From Bacillota bacterium (GTDB lineage Bacteria; Bacillota; UBA4882; UBA8346), in NCBI GenBank assembly GCA_023426245.1, contig JAFABB010000011.1:24862-88861 (forward strand): a DNA stretch of 64,000 nucleotides. Direction: 5' to 3'. Of this stretch, positions 1-56,640 are shown piece by piece. The stretch's first letter is position 1; every line of letters starts with the position of its first letter. The position numbers and the translations under genes were made by a program. The notes beneath the pieces were generated by a model. That model searched no databases, was not told where the DNA came from, and saw only the letters and a list, made by a program, of their open reading frames with translations.

Positions 1-165
1 ACATTTTTTTGAAAAAAGTGTGTCGATTTTGTGTCGATAACCCTAGATGCTGATATGAAAAGGTTTAAGAGAATTTTTGAAACAATATGCCTAATAAATG
101 CCCGGTTGATAATTTTAAACGTTAAAAGTCAAAATCGAAGCTGCTTTCGTGAATCACGTCTTGAG

Positions 166-174
166 TTATCCACA
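166..174 (+). promoter_or_regulatory. Isolated perfect DnaA-box 9-mer TTATCCACA
   Basis: Exact match to the TTATNCACA consensus. Weaker relatives: tgtcgataa at 32-40 (1 mismatch, reverse orientation) and ttatccagc at 241-249 (2 mismatches). No dnaA/dnaN nearby. Confidence 0.25.
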
Positions 175-550
175 GGAAGATGTCAGGCGATAGCTTCAAA
201 ATGAAAAATCTTTTTGTTTTTATACTAAAATCCGGCAAACTTATCCAGCCGAAAAAATTTCGTTGATTATAAAGATAACTCAGCTAAGCTGCTCGCCTAT
301 CGACTCACCCCTTCAGGTACTTTGGGGGTCATAGCTATTTGAAGCCGTTCCCCGCTCTCTGACTGCCGGTGTTTATGAATGTCTGAGAGAGAGGAAGTTC
401 GCTATCCTAAGCATTGATTGCTTTATTAAAAGAAAGCTCCACGGAATTGGTTCCAAAACTCAAATATATCAGTCTGGGAAAAATCGATCAACTCCTATGC
501 ATAGGAACCCCCCCATCAAGAATCTCATCCGTATGCAGCGTTTATCATTG

Positions 551-641
551 CTTCAAAGCATCACCGAGCCCGGTAAATCCGGGCTTTGGAATGCTTTTTA
601 TTACTTAGCCGCGGGGTTTAACCCGCGGTGGACAAAACCGG
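551..641 (+). repeat. REP-like two-hairpin module, copy 1
   Basis: Hairpin 1 is gagcccgg-taaat-ccgggctt. About 25 nt later comes TAGC-CCGCGGG-gtttaa-CCCGCGG-TGGA. The reverse complement aligns by eye at about 75-80 percent identity with 1619-1709. Same architecture as 56557-56640. Confidence 0.7.
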
Positions 642-800
642 CTAAAAACATTTACACATTTGGCTTCACTATATTCATTATCCATCATACGTTTATTTTC
701 AAGAATCCGGGTAATGTTTAGCGTTCCGACGGATGAGTGAGCCGAAAGTGGTTAAAATCCGCAAGTTTTATCAAGAGTGAAGTTCTATAGGCCCCTTTTC

Positions 801-840
801 CCCTCCCCCATAGCCGATTTCCACGATCCATGGGGGAGGG
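801..840. other. GC-rich hairpin, perfect 11-bp stem
   Basis: ccctcccccat (801-811) pairs with atgggggaggg (830-840), with an 18-nt loop. It lies between REP-like copy 1 and the tandem array. Confidence 0.6.
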
Positions 841-919
841 CCACTGCGTCCGAACCGGTCCTAAGGGTGAGGGCATTGGCGCAAATTCGGCATTCATTTC
901 CGAGTTAATTTCAGGGTTT

Positions 920-1465
920 AAAAATAAAAATTCCCGCCATAAAAATCGATTCTTGAGAAAAAAGTTTTTCCCTTCGAAAAATGATTTTTTTCTTTCAAAA
1001 GAAATTTATTATTTCCGGAAATGATTTTTTCTTTCGGGAAAAAATCCATTTTCCCGTTCAATCCATCCCTCGGGTCACAGAAAGGATCAATTTTGTCCTT
1101 CGGAGGACCGATCGGATCACAAAAAGGATCATTTCCGCCGCCCGATCGATCAATTTTTCCCAAAAAAAGTCCTTTCGGTCGTTCAGAGAATCGATCCAAC
1201 TCCAAAAAAGATCCTTTTCCCCCTCCGATCGGTCCCTTTCCCTCCAAAAAGAATCATTTCTGTGACAAAAATGATCATTTCTCCCGTTCAAAGAATCCTT
1301 TCCGTCGTAAAAATGATCTTTTCCGTGACGGAAAGGATCGCTTGACTCATTCAAAGGATGCTTTCTGCCCCTAAAAGGATTCTTTCCGCGGTAAAAATGA
1401 TTCTTTCTGTGATTCAAAGGATCGATCCGGTCACAAAAATAATTCTTTCTTTGACCCAAAATCTT
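920..1465. repeat. Degenerate tandem array, about 26 units of about 21 bp with core AAA(G/T)GATC(A/T)TTTC
   Basis: Core centres fall near 1023, 1045, 1064, 1086, 1128, 1170, 1194, 1211, 1228, 1253, 1274, 1295, 1316, 1337, 1357, 1379, 1400, 1422 and 1441. Spacing is 20-22 bp in the most regular part (1253-1422). There are 14 GATC in 1085-1427. Reading frames stay open on both strands only because of the low-complexity repeat. Confidence 0.85.
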
Positions 1466-1618
1466 CACAAGGCCCGCTCTTGCCTTTATAAAGACCTTAC
1501 CCCATCCCCCTTTAACTCTAAACATTACCCATATCTTGGCGGATAAAAAATTGATAATATTCAATAAATATAAGGCATTTATGAATCCAGAATAGGTCTT
1601 TGCCTAATGAAATGAAGG

Positions 1619-1709
1619 CCGGATTCGTCACCGCGGGCTAAAGCCACACGGCTAAGTATTAAAAAGCATTTCAAAGCCCAGTTCCACCGGGCTCCGCGAT
1701 GCTTCGAAG
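1619..1709 (-). repeat. REP-like two-hairpin module, copy 2 (inverted relative to copy 1)
   Basis: ccggattcgtcaccgcgggctaaagcc...ggctaagtattaaaaagcatttcaaagccc...ccgggctccgcgatgcttcgaag aligns with the reverse complement of 551-641. Confidence 0.7.
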
Positions 1710-1777
1710 TCCATTCCAAAGTCAGAACAGTAAAGATTAGCCGATCCCCGGAGGGGATTTAGAATTCTTTAAATTGC

Positions 1778-1812
1778 CTAGCCGTGCGGTTTTAACCCGC
1801 GGCGGACAGAAC
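1778..1812 (+). repeat. Partial REP-like module (second hairpin only), direct copy of 604-639
   Basis: ctagccgtgcggttttaacccgcggcggacagaac compared with cttagccgcggggtttaacccgcggtggacaaaac. It is followed 45 nt later by GGGTAATGTTTAG (1858-1870), as in copy 1 (709-721). Confidence 0.6.
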
Positions 1813-1866
1813 AAGCATTAATTTTCTTCTGAATATTCTATTATTTATTAGAGATATGGGTAATGT

Positions 1867-2613
1867 TTAGCCCTTCAACTCTTGGAGGACGATCTTCTGG
1901 ATTTCCTTGTGATCGGGCAAAAAGCCATGAATCTTGTGGGGCGCATAATTATCCTCCACAATATAGTGCCGGTTGGCCTCAATTTCAGTGCTTTGCACCG
2001 GAACTGTCTGATCACCCTCGCCAATCCAGGCTGCAATCTTCCCTTGGAATGGATGCTTTTTTTCATCAATATTCAGTTTCATGGCAATAATGGCGGTTTG
2101 AATATGGCTTGGGAAGGGGCAGCCGGCCAATTCCAAAAGCAGCGGATGACGGCGGCCCAGAATCAAGGGGGTCAATGCCCGGCTATCTCCGGGTAAAAAA
2201 AGGTCGCGCTTATTTTTATGAAATTCGGTTTTGCAAAAATCGGCCCGGGGTGAACCGAGGAATGGCGGAGCAATCATAATCAGTTTGTGGATATCGTTTT
2301 GATAGAAAGGAGAAGCTGTATAATACTTGCCGATAATGCCTCCCAGGCTGAAAGTGACCAAATCGATTTTCGGGCTGCCGGAAAGGGCTCTGGCCTTTGC
2401 AATCTCCAGTTTTAGGCGTTTGGCCGACTTTAAAATCGGATCGAGCGTAGGATAGGAAAACCAAAACAAATTTTCCCCCGGCTGATAACCCTCCAATATT
2501 AAAAAGCTAAACATACTTCCCTCTTTCGGTTTCCTGGAAAAACACCCCGGAACACCGAAAGTATGCCGGGCATTGCTGGCTATGCCGTGGACCAATAATA
2601 TCGGTTTCATCAT
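1867..2613 (-). CDS. Alpha/beta-fold hydrolase (lipase/esterase-like)
   Basis: 248-aa ORF with an LLVHGI N-terminus and an FSLGG nucleophile elbow (GxSxG). AAAGGAG lies upstream of the ATG. Confidence 0.75.
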   Translation of the reverse strand: MMKPILLVHGIASNARHTFGVPGCFSRKPKEGSMFSFLILEGYQPGENLFWFSYPTLDPILKSAKRLKLEIAKARALSGSPKIDLVTFSLGGIIGKYYTASPFYQNDIHKLIMIAPPFLGSPRADFCKTEFHKNKRDLFLPGDSRALTPLILGRRHPLLLELAGCPFPSHIQTAIIAMKLNIDEKKHPFQGKIAAWIGEGDQTVPVQSTEIEANRHYIVEDNYAPHKIHGFLPDHKEIQKIVLQELKG

Positions 2614-9862: not shown

Positions 9863-10438
9863 TCAAGATCTTTCAATCCCTTCAATTCTGGAAATCGGCA
9901 ATAATGAAGGAGGTGTTAAAACTACAAGGATTTTCGCCGGACTATCCTCAACATTCTGACAAAGATGGGGATAGGTGCTATCCAGATGGATACTGTCGCC
10001 TTCTTCCAAAATCGCCGCAAATTCTCCTTGACGGACTTTAACTTTTCCTGACAAAACCGTAATAAATTCTTCTCCATCATGGGTATGGGTACTATTTCCC
10101 GTCTGATATCCCAGGGGAAGGTCAATCAGCAATACTTGCAATTGACGTCCAAAAGCCGCCGATAATACTTCCATTTCAGACTTTTCGCCTAATTTTATCT
10201 TGGGGCGGTGTGTTTTCGGAACGAACTCCGGTTTAACCTGGCTGTCCTCTAAAAGATTTTTCATGGGAATATTAAGGGCAACGGCAATTTTCTGAAGACT
10301 ATCAATAGAGAGTGAAACCTTGTCATTTTCGAGCTGACTGATGAAGCCCCGGGACAAACCGGTTGCATCAGCCAATTGGGGAATCGTCATATTGAGTGTT
10401 TGCCGGTAATCTTTGATTTTATTACCGATTGAAGTCAT
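9863..10438 (-). CDS. XRE-family HTH regulator with C-terminal cupin domain
   Basis: N-terminal HTH_3 (IKDYRQTLNMTIPQLADATGLSRGFISQLEN). C-terminal cupin_2 (GEEFITVLSGKVKV...GDSIHLDS..PH). Confidence 0.85.
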   Translation of the reverse strand: MTSIGNKIKDYRQTLNMTIPQLADATGLSRGFISQLENDKVSLSIDSLQKIAVALNIPMKNLLEDSQVKPEFVPKTHRPKIKLGEKSEMEVLSAAFGRQLQVLLIDLPLGYQTGNSTHTHDGEEFITVLSGKVKVRQGEFAAILEEGDSIHLDSTYPHLCQNVEDSPAKILVVLTPPSLLPISRIEGIERS

Positions 10439-10823
10439 TCATGTTCCTCCCGGTTTTAGACTAAGAATTTTGTTTGCAACTGGAAAAAACACAATTTATA
10501 TTAGTAATAATAATATATTATTATCTACACTAAATTTCAAGTCCCTATAAAAAATACTTTGTCTCAACTTGGAGCTGCCTCAAATGTAAATTCGGCGCAT
10601 TTACGGGCATTTGTGCACGTACGCGCACGTGCGATAAAAAAATGCAAAATATCGGAATTGACCCATTGAATAACGCGATATGTGGTATTTCCGATTGATT
10701 TTATATTGCTCTTAAACAGTCCCTTTAAGAGCAAATCGATTAACGAAACCGGATGGCTAAATACTGCAATCACCCTTAATACTGGGTTTTCATTACCGGG
10801 TCTGCACAATGCCGTCTTAAGAG

Positions 10824-10840
10824 ATACCACATAGGGGTAT
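10824..10840. promoter_or_regulatory. CsoR-type operator-like dyad (imperfect) ATACCAC-ATA-GGGGTAT
   Basis: GC-tract inverted repeat of the ATACCCC-N3-GGGGTAT type, 130 bp upstream of csoR. Confidence 0.5.
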
Positions 10841-10930
10841 ATGGCATTAAGAGAGCTTCTATTTAGAAATTAATAGGGAATCCTCATTAATAAGCTTTAC
10901 ATCATGAAACATTTCCATTATAATCAAAAT

Positions 10931-10947
10931 ATACCCCATAGGGGTAT
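10931..10947. promoter_or_regulatory. CsoR-type operator dyad ATACCCC-ATA-GGGGTAT
   Basis: Perfect 7-3-7 inverted repeat 24 nt upstream of the csoR ATG. It resembles the known TACCC...GGGTA CsoR operators. Confidence 0.7.
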
Positions 10948-10970
10948 GTGATCTCTGAAGGAGGTTCACC

Positions 10971-11246
10971 ATGAAAGAATGTATTGACGCTCCGGCAGTT
11001 ACAGCCCGTCTTAAGCGAATCAGCGGTCAAATCCAGGGAATCGGCTCCATGGTAGTTAAAGATGTCCCTTGCGAAGACATCTTAATCCAAATTGGCGCCG
11101 CTAAAGCGGCGCTTCATAAGGTAGGTCAAATTATTCTTGAGGGACATTTGCGCCATTGCGTCGTAAAAGGGATTGAACACGGTGAAATCGAGGAAACCAT
11201 TCAGGACCTGACCAATGCGATCGAGCAATTCTCGCGAATGGTTTAA
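10971..11246 (+). CDS. csoR: CsoR/RcnR-family metal-sensing repressor (x-C-H-C ligand pattern)
   Basis: 91 aa with RLKRI.GQI.GI, Cys in VPCEDIL and HLRHC (HxxxC). GAAGGAGG lies upstream. Confidence 0.9.
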   Translation: MKECIDAPAVTARLKRISGQIQGIGSMVVKDVPCEDILIQIGAAKAALHKVGQIILEGHLRHCVVKGIEHGEIEETIQDLTNAIEQFSRMV

Positions 11247-11307
11247 CTTTTTCAATTCCAATGGGTTTTAGTTCCTACCCCATTTCACAATCGAGGTGAA
11301 CGTTTCC

Positions 11308-13197
11308 ATGGAAAAACTGAAAAACTGGATGAAAGACGATCAAAAGCGGGCCATTCTTTGGGCTGGTATTTCCGGAGTATCGTTAATATTAAGTTTCTTT
11401 GGATGGACTCCAAAATTCTTACCCTTCGACATTGCTTGGGTCGCCATTATTATTTCCGGGTTACCTATTATTAAACAAGCAGCCATCGGTCTATTCACCA
11501 AATTCGATATTCGCGCCGATGTTTTGGTTTCCATCGCCTTGATCGCCTCGGTAGCCATCGGTGAAATATTTGCTGCCGGCGAAGTGGCTTTTATCATGAC
11601 CATCGGTTCGATTTTGGAAAACCTCACGTCTTCCAAGGCGCGGAAAGGAATTGAAAAGCTGGTGCGGCTCACACCCCGCACCGCCCGGATCGTGCAAGAC
11701 AATCAAGAAATAATCGTTTCAGCCGAGTCCGTCCAAACCGACGCTCTGTTACGGGTGCTTCCCGGGGAAACAATTGCCGTGGATGGTATCATAATTTCCG
11801 GCGAGACCTCCATCGACCAATCCGTCATGACCGGCGAGTCGCTTCCCGTCGATAAGGGGCCGGGAGATGAAGTCTTCAGTGGTACAGTCAACCAGTTCGG
11901 CGCCTTCGACATGCAAGCCACCCGGGTTGGAGAAGACAGTTCGTTACAGCGAATGATCCGGTTGGTAGCTGCAGCGGATGCCAACAAAGCCAAAGTGGTC
12001 CGCTTGACTGATCGCTGGGCCACCTGGATTGTAGCCATAGCCTTAACAGCTGCGCTGGTTACCTGGTTGGTGACAGGTGAAGCGATCCGGGCCGTAACCA
12101 TTCTGGTGGTTTTTTGCCCTTGCGCATTGGTACTGGCTACCCCCACCGCCATTATGGCCGGAATCGGAAATGCCGCCCGTCACGGAGTATTGATCCGTTC
12201 GGGGGATGTTTTGGAACGTCTGGTTAAAATAAAACGGATTGCCTTCGATAAAACAGGCACCCTGACCTGCGGTAAGCTCGGAGTCGTAGCGGTAGAGTCC
12301 ATTATCCCCGGTTTTTCAAAAAATCAATTGTTAAAAATAGCCGCAACAGTGGAACACCGTTCCGAACATCCTTTGGGCCATGCCGTATTAAGTCATGCCA
12401 AAACATTCGATTTAGGCCTGGCGGAACCGGAAAATTTTTTCATGATCCCGGGGCGCGGCGTCAAGGCCCGTGTCGATGGACAAACCATCCTGGCGGGTAA
12501 TGCGGAACTACTTACAGAAGAAGGTATTAGGTTAACGGATGAACTACTGTCCATGGCGGCCAAATACCGGAATGAAGGGTGTACGATTATTTTCGTAGGA
12601 ATTCAGCGCAAATCAGCCGGGCTGATCGCGCTGGCGGATACTTTACGTAACAACGCGCGTTCCACGATTGAAGATATTCATGCCACAGGCGTTAAAACTC
12701 TCTTACTTACAGGCGATCATATCCAGGCTGCTTCCCATATCGCCAATGCCGTCGGTATCACCGATATCCGTTCGGAACTTCTTCCTGAAGACAAAGTCTC
12801 CGCCATTCAGGTCCGTCAGTGCGCGAATGAGCCCATCTGCATGATTGGCGACGGTATCAACGATGCGCCCGCTTTAAAAACGGCTATGGTCGGAGTGGCG
12901 ATGGGCGGAATCGGGAGTGATATCGCCGTGGACGCAGCGGATATTGCGCTGGTGAGCGATGATATCTCCCGGATCCCATATTTACTGCGTCTATCCCATC
13001 AGACCATCCGTACCATTCATGTAAATATCATTTTGTCCATGGGACTTAATTTAAGCGCAATCATCCTAGCATCTTTGGGTTTTATGGGGCCGGTGGTCGG
13101 GGCCTTGGTGCATAATTTAGGTTCGGTAGGCGTGGTCCTAAACTCTGCTTTGCTGTTGAAAACTAAAGATGATATCCATTTGAAAAAAACCGCCTAA
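11308..13197 (+). CDS. Heavy-metal-translocating P1B-type ATPase lacking an N-terminal metal-binding domain
   Basis: CPCALVLATP, DKTGTLT, SEHPLG and GDGINDAP motifs. There is no CxxC HMA domain and the protein starts directly with TM helices. The ORF opens at a GTG at 11296, but the ATG at 11308 has GAGGTG 9 nt upstream. Confidence 0.9.
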   Translation: MEKLKNWMKDDQKRAILWAGISGVSLILSFFGWTPKFLPFDIAWVAIIISGLPIIKQAAIGLFTKFDIRADVLVSIALIASVAIGEIFAAGEVAFIMTIGSILENLTSSKARKGIEKLVRLTPRTARIVQDNQEIIVSAESVQTDALLRVLPGETIAVDGIIISGETSIDQSVMTGESLPVDKGPGDEVFSGTVNQFGAFDMQATRVGEDSSLQRMIRLVAAADANKAKVVRLTDRWATWIVAIALTAALVTWLVTGEAIRAVTILVVFCPCALVLATPTAIMAGIGNAARHGVLIRSGDVLERLVKIKRIAFDKTGTLTCGKLGVVAVESIIPGFSKNQLLKIAATVEHRSEHPLGHAVLSHAKTFDLGLAEPENFFMIPGRGVKARVDGQTILAGNAELLTEEGIRLTDELLSMAAKYRNEGCTIIFVGIQRKSAGLIALADTLRNNARSTIEDIHATGVKTLLLTGDHIQAASHIANAVGITDIRSELLPEDKVSAIQVRQCANEPICMIGDGINDAPALKTAMVGVAMGGIGSDIAVDAADIALVSDDISRIPYLLRLSHQTIRTIHVNIILSMGLNLSAIILASLGFMGPVVGALVHNLGSVGVVLNSALLLKTKDDIHLKKTA

Positions 13198-55980: not shown

Positions 55981-56058
55981 CGAATTATTAGACTCTTGCT
56001 TATTAGGCATGCAGGATAATTTTACCAATAGCCGAAATATTCATTCGGTGATTAAAAA

Positions 56059-56472
56059 ATGCCTCATTCGTATAAAGAGTTATTCTATCATTTGGTTTGG
56101 TCAACCAAATATCGTGAGCCCTTCATTACAGAAGAGATTCAACCTGTTTTGCTAAAATTTTTAAAGGACAAAGCATCTGCGATTGGCTGCCGGATCTTTA
56201 CCTTTAATGCCATGAATGATCATGTTCATATCTTACTTTATATTCCCCCCAGTCTGGCAATATCCGTTGCAGTTAATAGATTAAAAGGCGCCAGTTCTCT
56301 GGAATTTAAAAACTATCTGCCGAATTTCGCATGGCAGAAAGGTTATGGTATTTTTTCTTTACGCCGTTCTGATCTGCCAATTGTACAAAACTATATCAAG
56401 AGCCAAGAAAAACATCATCTAAAGGGAACCATTAATATATCATGGGAAGCGCCGTTGGAGTCGGAAATATGA
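56059..56472 (+). CDS. tnpA: IS200/IS605-family Y1 (HUH) transposase TnpA; no tnpB; possibly RAYT-like
   Basis: 137 aa with YHLVWSTKYR, the HUH motif DHVHILL, and QKGYGIFS plus YI..Q..HH at the C-terminus. It is followed by the REP-like two-hairpin module. Confidence 0.9.
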   Translation: MPHSYKELFYHLVWSTKYREPFITEEIQPVLLKFLKDKASAIGCRIFTFNAMNDHVHILLYIPPSLAISVAVNRLKGASSLEFKNYLPNFAWQKGYGIFSLRRSDLPIVQNYIKSQEKHHLKGTINISWEAPLESEI

Positions 56473-56556
56473 TGATATTTATCATCCGCCAATTATCCAT
56501 CGCCCGTTCTGTCCGCCCAGACCTGAAGTTCTGGGCTATGCTTTTAAAACCATTCG

Positions 56557-56640
56557 AAACCCCGGCTTTGCCGGGGTCGGTTGTTCTTCGGGGCATCTTC
56601 AAAACATCTTCCTAGCCCCACCGTGAACGGTGGGGTGGAT
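56557..56640 (+). repeat. REP-like two-hairpin module adjacent to tnpA
   Basis: Hairpin 1 is accccgg-ctttg-ccggggt (56559-56577). Hairpin 2 is TAGC-CCCCACCG-tgaa-CGGTGGGG-TGGA (56612-56639). Order, spacing and flanks match 551-641, but the stem sequences differ. Confidence 0.65.

Follow-up and report, generated by a model that had tools for sequence, protein, structure and literature searches.

Two kinds of short bacterial repeat are usually kept apart: repeats with classical terminal inverted repeats (TIRs) and target duplications, and doublets of repetitive extragenic palindromes (REPs), the REPINs, that are tied to Y1 transposases. Examples of the former, the miniature inverted-repeat transposable elements (MITEs), include Correia/NEMIS in Neisseria, RUP in Streptococcus pneumoniae, bcr1 in Bacillus cereus and Nezha in cyanobacteria (Di Nocera et al. 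2013, PMC3733652). GTAG-tagged REPs occur in Proteobacteria, Cyanobacteria, Chloroflexi and the PVC group, Bacillota not being among the hosts listed, and genes resembling those of RAYTs (tyrosine transposases that are associated with REPs) have been found flanked by long inverted repeats, as “TIRtrons”, so that hybrids of REPs and inverted repeats have precedent (PMC3733652). The Y1 enzymes of TnpA_Y1 subclass 1.2, defined by a Y---Q--HH motif, a short protein and a low copy number (Quentin et al. 2018, PMC6006769), are poorly characterized and apparently domesticated. Here, a repeat family that appears to unite the two kinds was analysed in a 64-kb stretch of contig JAFABB010000011.1 from a Bacillota bacterium (this whole stretch, 64,000 nucleotides long, is referred to as the window). 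The family is represented by a complete element of 353 bp at the 3' end of an esterase/lipase-like gene and by a half-element ∼800 bp away, and a 21-bp periodic array lies between them.

A first-pass annotation had read positions 551-1870 as one non-autonomous element, mobilizable by a Y1 transposase, in which two inverted arms carry the array as cargo. The present analysis makes it probable that the bracket is instead a coincidence, in which one MITE family inserted independently two or more times and so came to flank an older array that was already resident.

A complete element at the end of an esterase gene

The two arms, at 551-642 and 1618-1709, are 92 nt each and lie in inverted orientation. 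Their ungapped complementarity is 77%, rising to 83% identity when one gap is allowed (BLAST E = 2e-19 in a search within the 64-kb window). The 13-mer GGGTAATGTTTAG occurs exactly three times in the window, at 709 (+), 1518 (-) and 1858 (+), a number reached in none of 100 shuffled windows (mean 0.13), and the 19-mer AGATATGGGTAATGTTTAG (1852-1870) recurs without mismatch as its reverse complement at 1518-1536. The inverted repeats of the first-pass annotation were therefore confirmed at their positions and stand well above the background set by base composition. BLAST and exact matching revealed no further copy of the module or the 13-mer anywhere in the window. The interval between the arms is 796 bp (722-1517). 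When folded as single-stranded DNA, each module formed two hairpins (z = -4.3, -2.3 and -1.9): a long first hairpin, which in the A type of module is followed by a T run, and a short, GC-rich second hairpin of the form TAGCCGYG(N)GG-loop-CCCGCGG.

What had been described as a third, direct half-copy of the same module proved to be a full module of a second type, B, with a different first hairpin. Back-to-back A(-)/B(+) doublets are the standard arrangement of the family, observed at 12 places in the window and its relatives, including 1618-1812 of the window; the right arm and the presumed half-copy are thus two halves of one element. This complete MITE doublet spans 353 bp (1518-1870) and consists, in order, of TIR, A tail, A module on the reverse strand, B module, B tail and TIR. 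The left TIR, CTAAACATTACCCATATCT (1518-1536, plus strand), is a perfect 19-nt complement of the right TIR, AGATATGGGTAATGTTTAG (1852-1870, plus strand). Within the A module (1618-1709, minus strand), the long hairpin and its T run are accompanied by the REP-like hairpin TAGCCGTGTGGCTTTAGCCCGCGG; the B module (1735-1812, plus strand) contains the hairpin GATCCCCGGAGGGGAT and the REP-like hairpin TAGCCGTGCGGTTTTAACCCGCGG, followed by CGGACAGAAC. The two REP-like hairpins are ∼125 nt apart, and the whole element folds as a single strand into one long hairpin (z = -6.6). Its coding content is limited to short open reading frames (ORFs) that match no family. A 10-bp sequence is present on both sides, as CCCTTTAACT at 1508-1517 and CCCTTCAACT at 1871-1880; the copies are identical at 9 of 10 positions, and the estimated chance of a match this good or better at a fixed junction is ∼3e-5. 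Positions 1721-1872 are 96.7% identical to a copy in the related locus L001, and doublets of the same type were found in both orientations and in unrelated contexts.

Relatives of the locus were reached through homologues of the adjacent esterase/lipase-like gene, which led to syntenic contigs. Two of these, L062 and L064, encode esterase proteins with 87 and 77% identity, respectively, and have a clean empty site at the position of the right-hand element. In L062, window positions 2622-1871 correspond to 9988-10740 and window positions 1519-980 to 10729-11246, the 351 bp at 1520-1870 being absent. A single copy of the target is present, ∼10 bp of which match both window segments (overlap at 10729-10740), and the same holds for L064. 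This overlap at the empty sites sets the bounds of the element at 1518-1870 and identifies a target duplication of 10 bp. The right-hand element is a discrete insertion, and it has the size, the lack of coding capacity, the TIRs (19/19 nt), the target duplication and the presence/absence polymorphism of a MITE. The window holds 1.5 copies, and ∼14 exact pattern matches were counted in the related assembly OH_HBB_134.

The esterase/lipase-like α/β-hydrolase gene (1867-2613, minus strand; all Pfam matches below threshold) lost its last 6 codons to the insertion. When 1518-1880 was deleted in silico, the C-terminus ...ELKGDGVRSL* was regained, which matches those of the nearest homologues (...ELQGDGEGAS in P0001 and ...ELKGDGGKSS in P0002). 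The present TAA stop codon (1867-1869, minus strand) sits within the right TIR of the element. Downstream of the gene, the first site resembling a terminator is formed by the hairpin and T run of the A module (1696-1672, minus strand), and it probably supplies the predicted esterase terminator. For annotation, this means that one MITE truncates and probably re-terminates the esterase gene, and that the array needs a separate explanation. Upstream of the same gene, a direct repeat, GACTTCGAAGTATTTTCTAAGTAG/GAGTTAAAAGTATTTTCTAAGTAG, was noted at 2720-2743 and 2809-2832; one of its copies is 88% identical to a stretch of L052 (622-670), and it probably represents another small repeat family.

The resident array and the left-hand insertion patch

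The array (935-1480) lies outside the mobile element and comprises ∼25 units of 21 bp, each with a core close to AAAGGATCnTTTC and a 7-nt spacer. In both L062 and L064, an array directly follows the intact esterase gene and neither arm is present. The three arrays (window; L062, 10790-11260; L064, 10830-11225) align unit by unit, with one 21-nt unit more in the window than in L062. Given this unit-for-unit presence at the same place without arms, the proposal that the array is cargo of an element spanning 551-1870 was rejected. The more distant relatives L065 and L070 have no array; downstream of their esterase genes is a gene for an Lhr helicase, directly in L065 and after two small intervening genes in L070. 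The array is a series of helically phased imperfect palindromes, resident at this locus and older than the insertions.

Analysis of AA/TT periodicity at 10.5 nt gave a power of 6.9 for the array, none of 226 control windows exceeding 1.2, and 14 GATC sites were counted where 1.5 were expected (∼9-fold). From these properties we infer a curved, protein-binding tract. Many orthologous units of L064 have the core AAAAATTATTTTT where the window has AAAGGATCATTT, a concerted change that looks as if binding specificity had shifted. The array was also considered as coding sequence, since both strands contain ORFs in several frames and gene callers predict ORFs there in the relatives. This possibility was rejected because substitutions are distributed 32/32/28 over the codon positions and non-synonymous changes outnumber synonymous ones among the changed codons (58-62 versus 5-15). 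No Pfam match was obtained over the array. After the array of L062, at 11270-11400, lies a different MITE-like repeat in which AATCCTGT motifs are arranged, as judged by eye, in inverted orientation; the same inverted repeat is found at ∼2950-3010 of L009 and ∼6290-6380 of L039 and recurs in several of these assemblies.

The left arm belongs to a solo half-element (541-721, plus strand) made up of an A module (551-642), an A tail (643-708) and the terminal 13-mer (709-721). Its tail is homologous along the full length to the A tail of the doublet in L055. No B partner lies upstream of it in the window, the only trace there being a 28-nt piece from the end of another tail family. Over its 28 nt, this fragment (262-289) shares 89% identity with element ends of the TGATTATAAAGATG family in L036, L037 and L033 (E = 2e-5). 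The feature to which it belongs (264-297, plus strand; TGATTATAAAGAT...) marks the outer edge of an insertion patch, and homology to L064 ends, by eye, immediately to its left. In L064, just ∼50 nt separate the end of the array from a region 84% identical to window positions 1-176. Relative to L064, the window carries ∼670 extra bases here (264 to ∼935), which comprise the end fragment, other sequence, the solo A half and a short repeat at 790-881. This comparison suggests that the left arm is debris of separate insertion events, namely an independent solo half of another copy of the element. The short repeat at 790-881 contains an 11-bp GC hairpin (CCCTCCCCCAT...ATGGGGGAGGG) followed by GGGTGAGGGC; it was also observed in L001 (6134-6205, 80% identity), where it adjoins a solo B half-element.

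The element family and hairpins beside Y1 transposase genes

To define the family, one genome per species was scanned with a fixed pattern for the second hairpin, TAGCCGYGNGGNTTTARCCCGCGG. The scan returned 61 loci, compared with ∼0.3 chance matches calculated for the whole collection. A non-autonomous mobile element, as the first-pass annotation had proposed, is borne out by this multicopy family together with the empty sites in L062 and L064; the proposed size is not, the 1.3-kb unit having no second copy among ∼70 related loci. The closest copies were found in uncultured “Bacillota bacterium” assemblies (OH_HBB_134, OH_CBrB_22, OH_CDB_50, OH_PBB_143, UBA8346 and AS06rmzACSIP_96), in which the flanks of the hairpins are conserved as well. 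The first hairpin is of the form GAGCCCGG...CCGGGCTT in the A type and GATCCCC-GGA-GGGGAT in the B type. Canonical doublets measure 260-400 bp, with AT-rich tails running outward from the modules to the TIRs.

Seven other copies are complete with both ends: six doublets and a single-hairpin derivative. Four of them are flanked by perfect direct repeats that adjoin the element ends, of 9 bp in L017 and L022, 12 bp in L047 and 7 bp in L037, and L055 has a 10-bp direct repeat with a one-base offset; the direct repeats of L039 and L040 are shorter and less certain (6 and 5 bp). The derivative in L040 (2409-2532) is 124 bp long and retains both ends round a single REP-like hairpin. That in L022 (1580-1980) is 401 bp long, ∼100 nt having been inserted into its A hairpin.

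The core of ∼180 nt is roughly 80-90% identical between genomes and is combined with at least three tail and end families: CTAWWCATTACCCATATC in the window, OH_CDB_50 and OH_CBrB_22; TGATTATAAAGATG in OH_HBB_134 and OH_PBB_143; and TGATTCTACTGCAACAA in AS06. The occurrence of differing ends round one core implies that the moving unit is set by its ends rather than by the hairpins. A scan of metagenome data with the 18-nt end of the window element gave two matches, one of them (L068) a chance match and the other in L069, and revealed no autonomous element with this end. The L069 match is a GC-rich MITE of 299 bp (932-1230) with the same 22-nt ends (CTAAACATTACCCATATCTTTT), an unrelated interior and no visible target duplication. 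Taken with the several end families, this shared end implies that the ends are an exchangeable recognition module, which is characteristic of a transposase that acts in trans on inverted repeats.

The 24-nt hairpin TAGCCGYGNGGNTTTARCCCGCGG itself is more widely distributed. Assemblies with several copies carry the labels Chloroflexales (one assembly with 10 loci), Chloroflexia (7), Bacillota, Clostridia, Planctomycetota, Tepidisphaeraceae and Bacteroidia; one Verrucomicrobia and one Gemmataceae assembly gave a single match each, and the viral contigs scanned gave none. Among the loci the hairpin is nearly invariant, and as these were recovered with a fixed pattern, covariation could not show. 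A second short hairpin usually precedes it and varies in sequence by lineage; between phyla, a MAFFT alignment did not bring the structures of the first hairpin into register.

The window contains a transposase gene, tnpA (56059-56472, plus strand), whose earlier assignment as a Y1 (HUH) transposase gene was confirmed (Pfam Y1_Tnp, E = 8e-28). Its product scored 84.9 bits against an NCBIfam IS200-type model and 23.7 bits against the REP_Tyr_transpos model (cutoff 80). The best PDB matches were the TnpA proteins of ISDra2, Sulfolobus and IS608, all of IS200/IS605 type, and TnpA_REP was not among the matches. The motif reads YIKSQEKHH, and Y---Q--HH is conserved in 34 of 35 homologues, tnpA included. 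Such genes are low-copy (one to four contigs per protein cluster) and encode about 135 aa; in L071, a 94% identical orthologue lies in the same gene neighbourhood. By its motif and by the published description of a short, low-copy protein (PMC6006769), rather than by a subclass profile, tnpA can be placed in subclass 1.2.

REP-like hairpins adjoin tnpA at 56516-56538 on the minus strand (TAGCCCAGAACTTCAGGTCTGGG, then CGGACAGAAC) and at 56613-56635 on the plus strand (TAGCCCCACCGTGAACGGTGGGG, then TGGA), and a weaker TAG-tagged hairpin is situated just upstream of the start codon (56029-56048, plus strand). Hairpins of the pattern TAGCC-8-bp stem-4-nt loop-GGyGGA number three in the window, compared with 0.36 in shuffles; two are beside tnpA and one is in the left arm. 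The first-pass annotation had placed a module of the same architecture after tnpA: the hairpin architecture (TAGCC-stem-loop-stem-GGyGGA) is indeed shared, the module sequence is not, and the stems beside tnpA differ from those of the element. Beside the orthologue in L071, too, hairpins of this scaffold with other stems are present.

Comparable hairpins were observed beside the other Y1 genes of this type. Those in L048 and L031 are flanked by the exact hairpin type of the scan (TAGCCGYGNGGNTTTARCCCGCGG), which in L048 forms a 28-nt inverted pair with 89% complementarity. Entire A(-)/B(+) doublets, of the same scaffold but with other stems, border the gene on both sides in L072 and L073, and L073 additionally has clusters resembling bacterial interspersed mosaic elements (BIMEs) beside it. 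Three TAG-tagged palindromes adjoin the Mucilaginibacter Y1 gene in L074. In total, tagged hairpins accompany 7/7 examined Y1 genes of this type, counting the CAG-tagged ones of L072. No TIRs were found around the Y1 genes beyond the hairpins themselves. Since the same doublet scaffold flanks low-copy Y---Q--HH Y1 genes, the doublet core appears to be REPIN-like and tied to this Y1 subclass. It shares with REPINs an inverted pair of REP hairpins that folds as one and the presence of the same repeats at a low-copy Y1 gene; it departs from them in the class of the protein, which is not the class 2 TnpA_REP with Y---NP, and in having TIR tails and target duplications.

Other features were noted near the start of the window. 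Positions 1-47 hold, on the reverse strand, a conserved sequence that resembles a strong promoter (TCGACA, 17 nt, TGTGATAAT) and is directed leftward, beyond the edge of the window. In relatives (L064, 11400-11590; L003, 130-260 and 750-910), it is followed by ∼100-130 nt and then a GC hairpin with a T run. This combination, present twice in L003, looks like a small RNA gene and matches no Rfam family. A perfect DnaA-box consensus, TTATCCACA, occurs at 166-174 in the conserved 176-nt region upstream of the leftward promoter and is kept in L064. No Rfam family passed its gathering threshold anywhere in the window, and at E ≤ 1 the matches over positions 1-2000 were no better than chance; L003 and L064 gave no Rfam match, and no tRNA genes were found in the window.

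Mobilization of the element and comparison with described systems

If the bracket arose by independent insertions beside a resident array, as is favoured here, the right copy (1518-1870) would have entered the last esterase codons and duplicated 10 bp of its target; the element end would then give the stop codon, and the A hairpin with its T run would give the terminator. The left copy (541-721) would be a solo half within ∼670 bp of insertion debris (264 to ∼935). The core would derive evolutionarily from doublets flanking Y---Q--HH Y1 genes, the Y1 system being its source and not its motor, and a transposase acting in trans would read the inverted-repeat ends and make staggered cuts. Within this explanation, a DDE-type enzyme seems somewhat the likelier mover than the Y1 enzyme, because sharp TIRs lie 40-110 nt beyond the hairpins, the duplications measure 5-12 bp and the end is shared with an unrelated MITE. 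The Y1 enzymes of IS608 and ISDra2 cleave within ∼20 nt of their hairpins. We take the 9-10-bp duplications and 5'-CT termini to be reminiscent of the IS4 family. Elements of IS200/IS605 type have neither TIRs nor such target duplications (Nunvar et al. 2010, PMC2817692). The link to a Y1 transposase drawn in the first-pass annotation therefore survives in one respect, the relationship of the hairpin core to the flanks of Y1 genes, while mobilization by the Y1 enzyme is doubtful in view of the TIRs, the duplications and the different stems beside tnpA.

Several observations weigh against this account. Neither the window nor the fetched loci yielded a transposase gene whose ends match those of the element. 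The duplications measure 9-10 bp in the end family of the window and 5-12 bp in another, a rather wide spread for one DDE enzyme. Between genomes, the tails have diverged more than the core, an uncommon pattern for the passive interior of a MITE and a hint that the hairpins themselves contribute to the movement or maintenance of the element.

In an alternative that is judged unlikely, the doublets would be true REPINs, their TAG-tagged hairpins being recognized on single-stranded DNA by a RAYT-like Y---Q--HH Y1 enzyme that copies the doublet, with the tails and duplications as by-products of an insertion chemistry new for this subclass. The 28-nt inverted pair in L048, the whole doublets on both sides of the gene in L072 and L073, and the tagged hairpins at all seven examined genes (the CAG-tagged ones again counted) are consistent with it. 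So are the retention of the scaffold while stems differ between lineages, the folding of the doublet into one long hairpin, and the Y1 gene itself, which is low-copy and syntenic between relatives like domesticated RAYTs. However, sharp 19-bp TIRs and 5-12-bp duplications are not made by known IS200/IS605 enzymes (PMC2817692), the same end is carried by the unrelated MITE in L069, and the stems beside tnpA of the window are unlike those of the element. The ends, moreover, lie far past the known cleavage sites of such enzymes.

Selection for conserved, non-mobile regulatory palindromes, acting as bidirectional terminators or protein-binding sites, is very improbable. The terminator-like hairpin and T run of each A module do point toward the array, and the pair could insulate it from read-through transcription; this carries little weight, because two elements would adopt such an orientation by chance 1 time in 4. 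Presence/absence polymorphism with a target duplication inside coding sequence, and dozens of copies in unrelated contexts in other genomes, argue strongly against such a role. Least credible of all is the composite element of 551-1870 (or 551-1709) with the array as cargo, for although both arms point inward in the order module, spacer, 13-mer and array, the array of L062 and L064 occupies the corresponding place beside the same gene and lacks both arms, the right arm belongs to a shorter unit that has ends and a target duplication of its own, and the 1.3-kb unit is not found a second time among ∼70 related loci.

In comparison with described systems, the element resembles bacterial MITEs in being 260-400 bp long and non-coding, with 14-22-bp TIRs and target duplications. 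It is likewise multicopy in related assemblies, mostly intergenic or at gene ends, and polymorphic in its insertion between relatives, and it has strong secondary structure and can donate stop codons and terminators. Unlike these MITEs, it has as its interior a conserved doublet of Y1-associated, TAG-tagged hairpins that is better conserved than the tails; one core is combined with at least three end families, and no parent insertion sequence is known.

Similarity to REPINs and RAYTs (Bertels & Rainey 2011, PMC3116915; PMC2817692), and to the REPtrons of Di Nocera et al. (PMC3733652), lies in the two inverted REP-like hairpins that fold into one long hairpin and in the conserved 5' tag at the stem, TAG here and GTAG in classical REPs. 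As at RAYT loci, a Y1 gene that is low-copy and syntenic has these modules on its flanks in inverted orientation, with BIME-like clusters beside the gene in L073. By contrast, the Y1 protein here has Y---Q--HH and not the Y---NP of class 2 TnpA_REP, the elements have long tails, TIRs and target duplications, and the hosts are uncultured Bacillota, not Proteobacteria. The tnpA product agrees with subclass 1.2 in its Y---Q--HH type, its length of ∼135 aa, its low copy number and its closeness to IS200 transposases without IS-like behaviour. That subclass was described without associated repeats, whereas the genes here are flanked by TAG-tagged doublets and occur in Bacillota-labelled assemblies. 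A Y1 HUH transposase and subterminal hairpins are also features of IS200/IS605 elements and their palindrome-associated (PATE) derivatives; in those, the hairpins at the two ends are in direct orientation and TIRs and duplications are lacking, whereas here the hairpins are inverted and both TIRs and duplications are present.

In the literature, no description was found of a REPIN-type core inside duplication-making MITEs or of repeats tied to Y1 subclass 1.2. It may tentatively be proposed, as a joint reading that we hold to be more doubtful than probable, that Y---Q--HH Y1 enzymes have a REPIN-like partner of their own, the TAG-tagged A/B hairpin doublet, and that in some Bacillota such doublets gained TIRs at least three times and spread as duplication-making MITEs, or, alternatively, that the Y1 subclass itself inserts with target duplication, a chemistry new for HUH enzymes. 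If the Y1 link is functional, the doublets would be the first repeat partner of subclass 1.2 and would extend REP-like systems to Bacillota.

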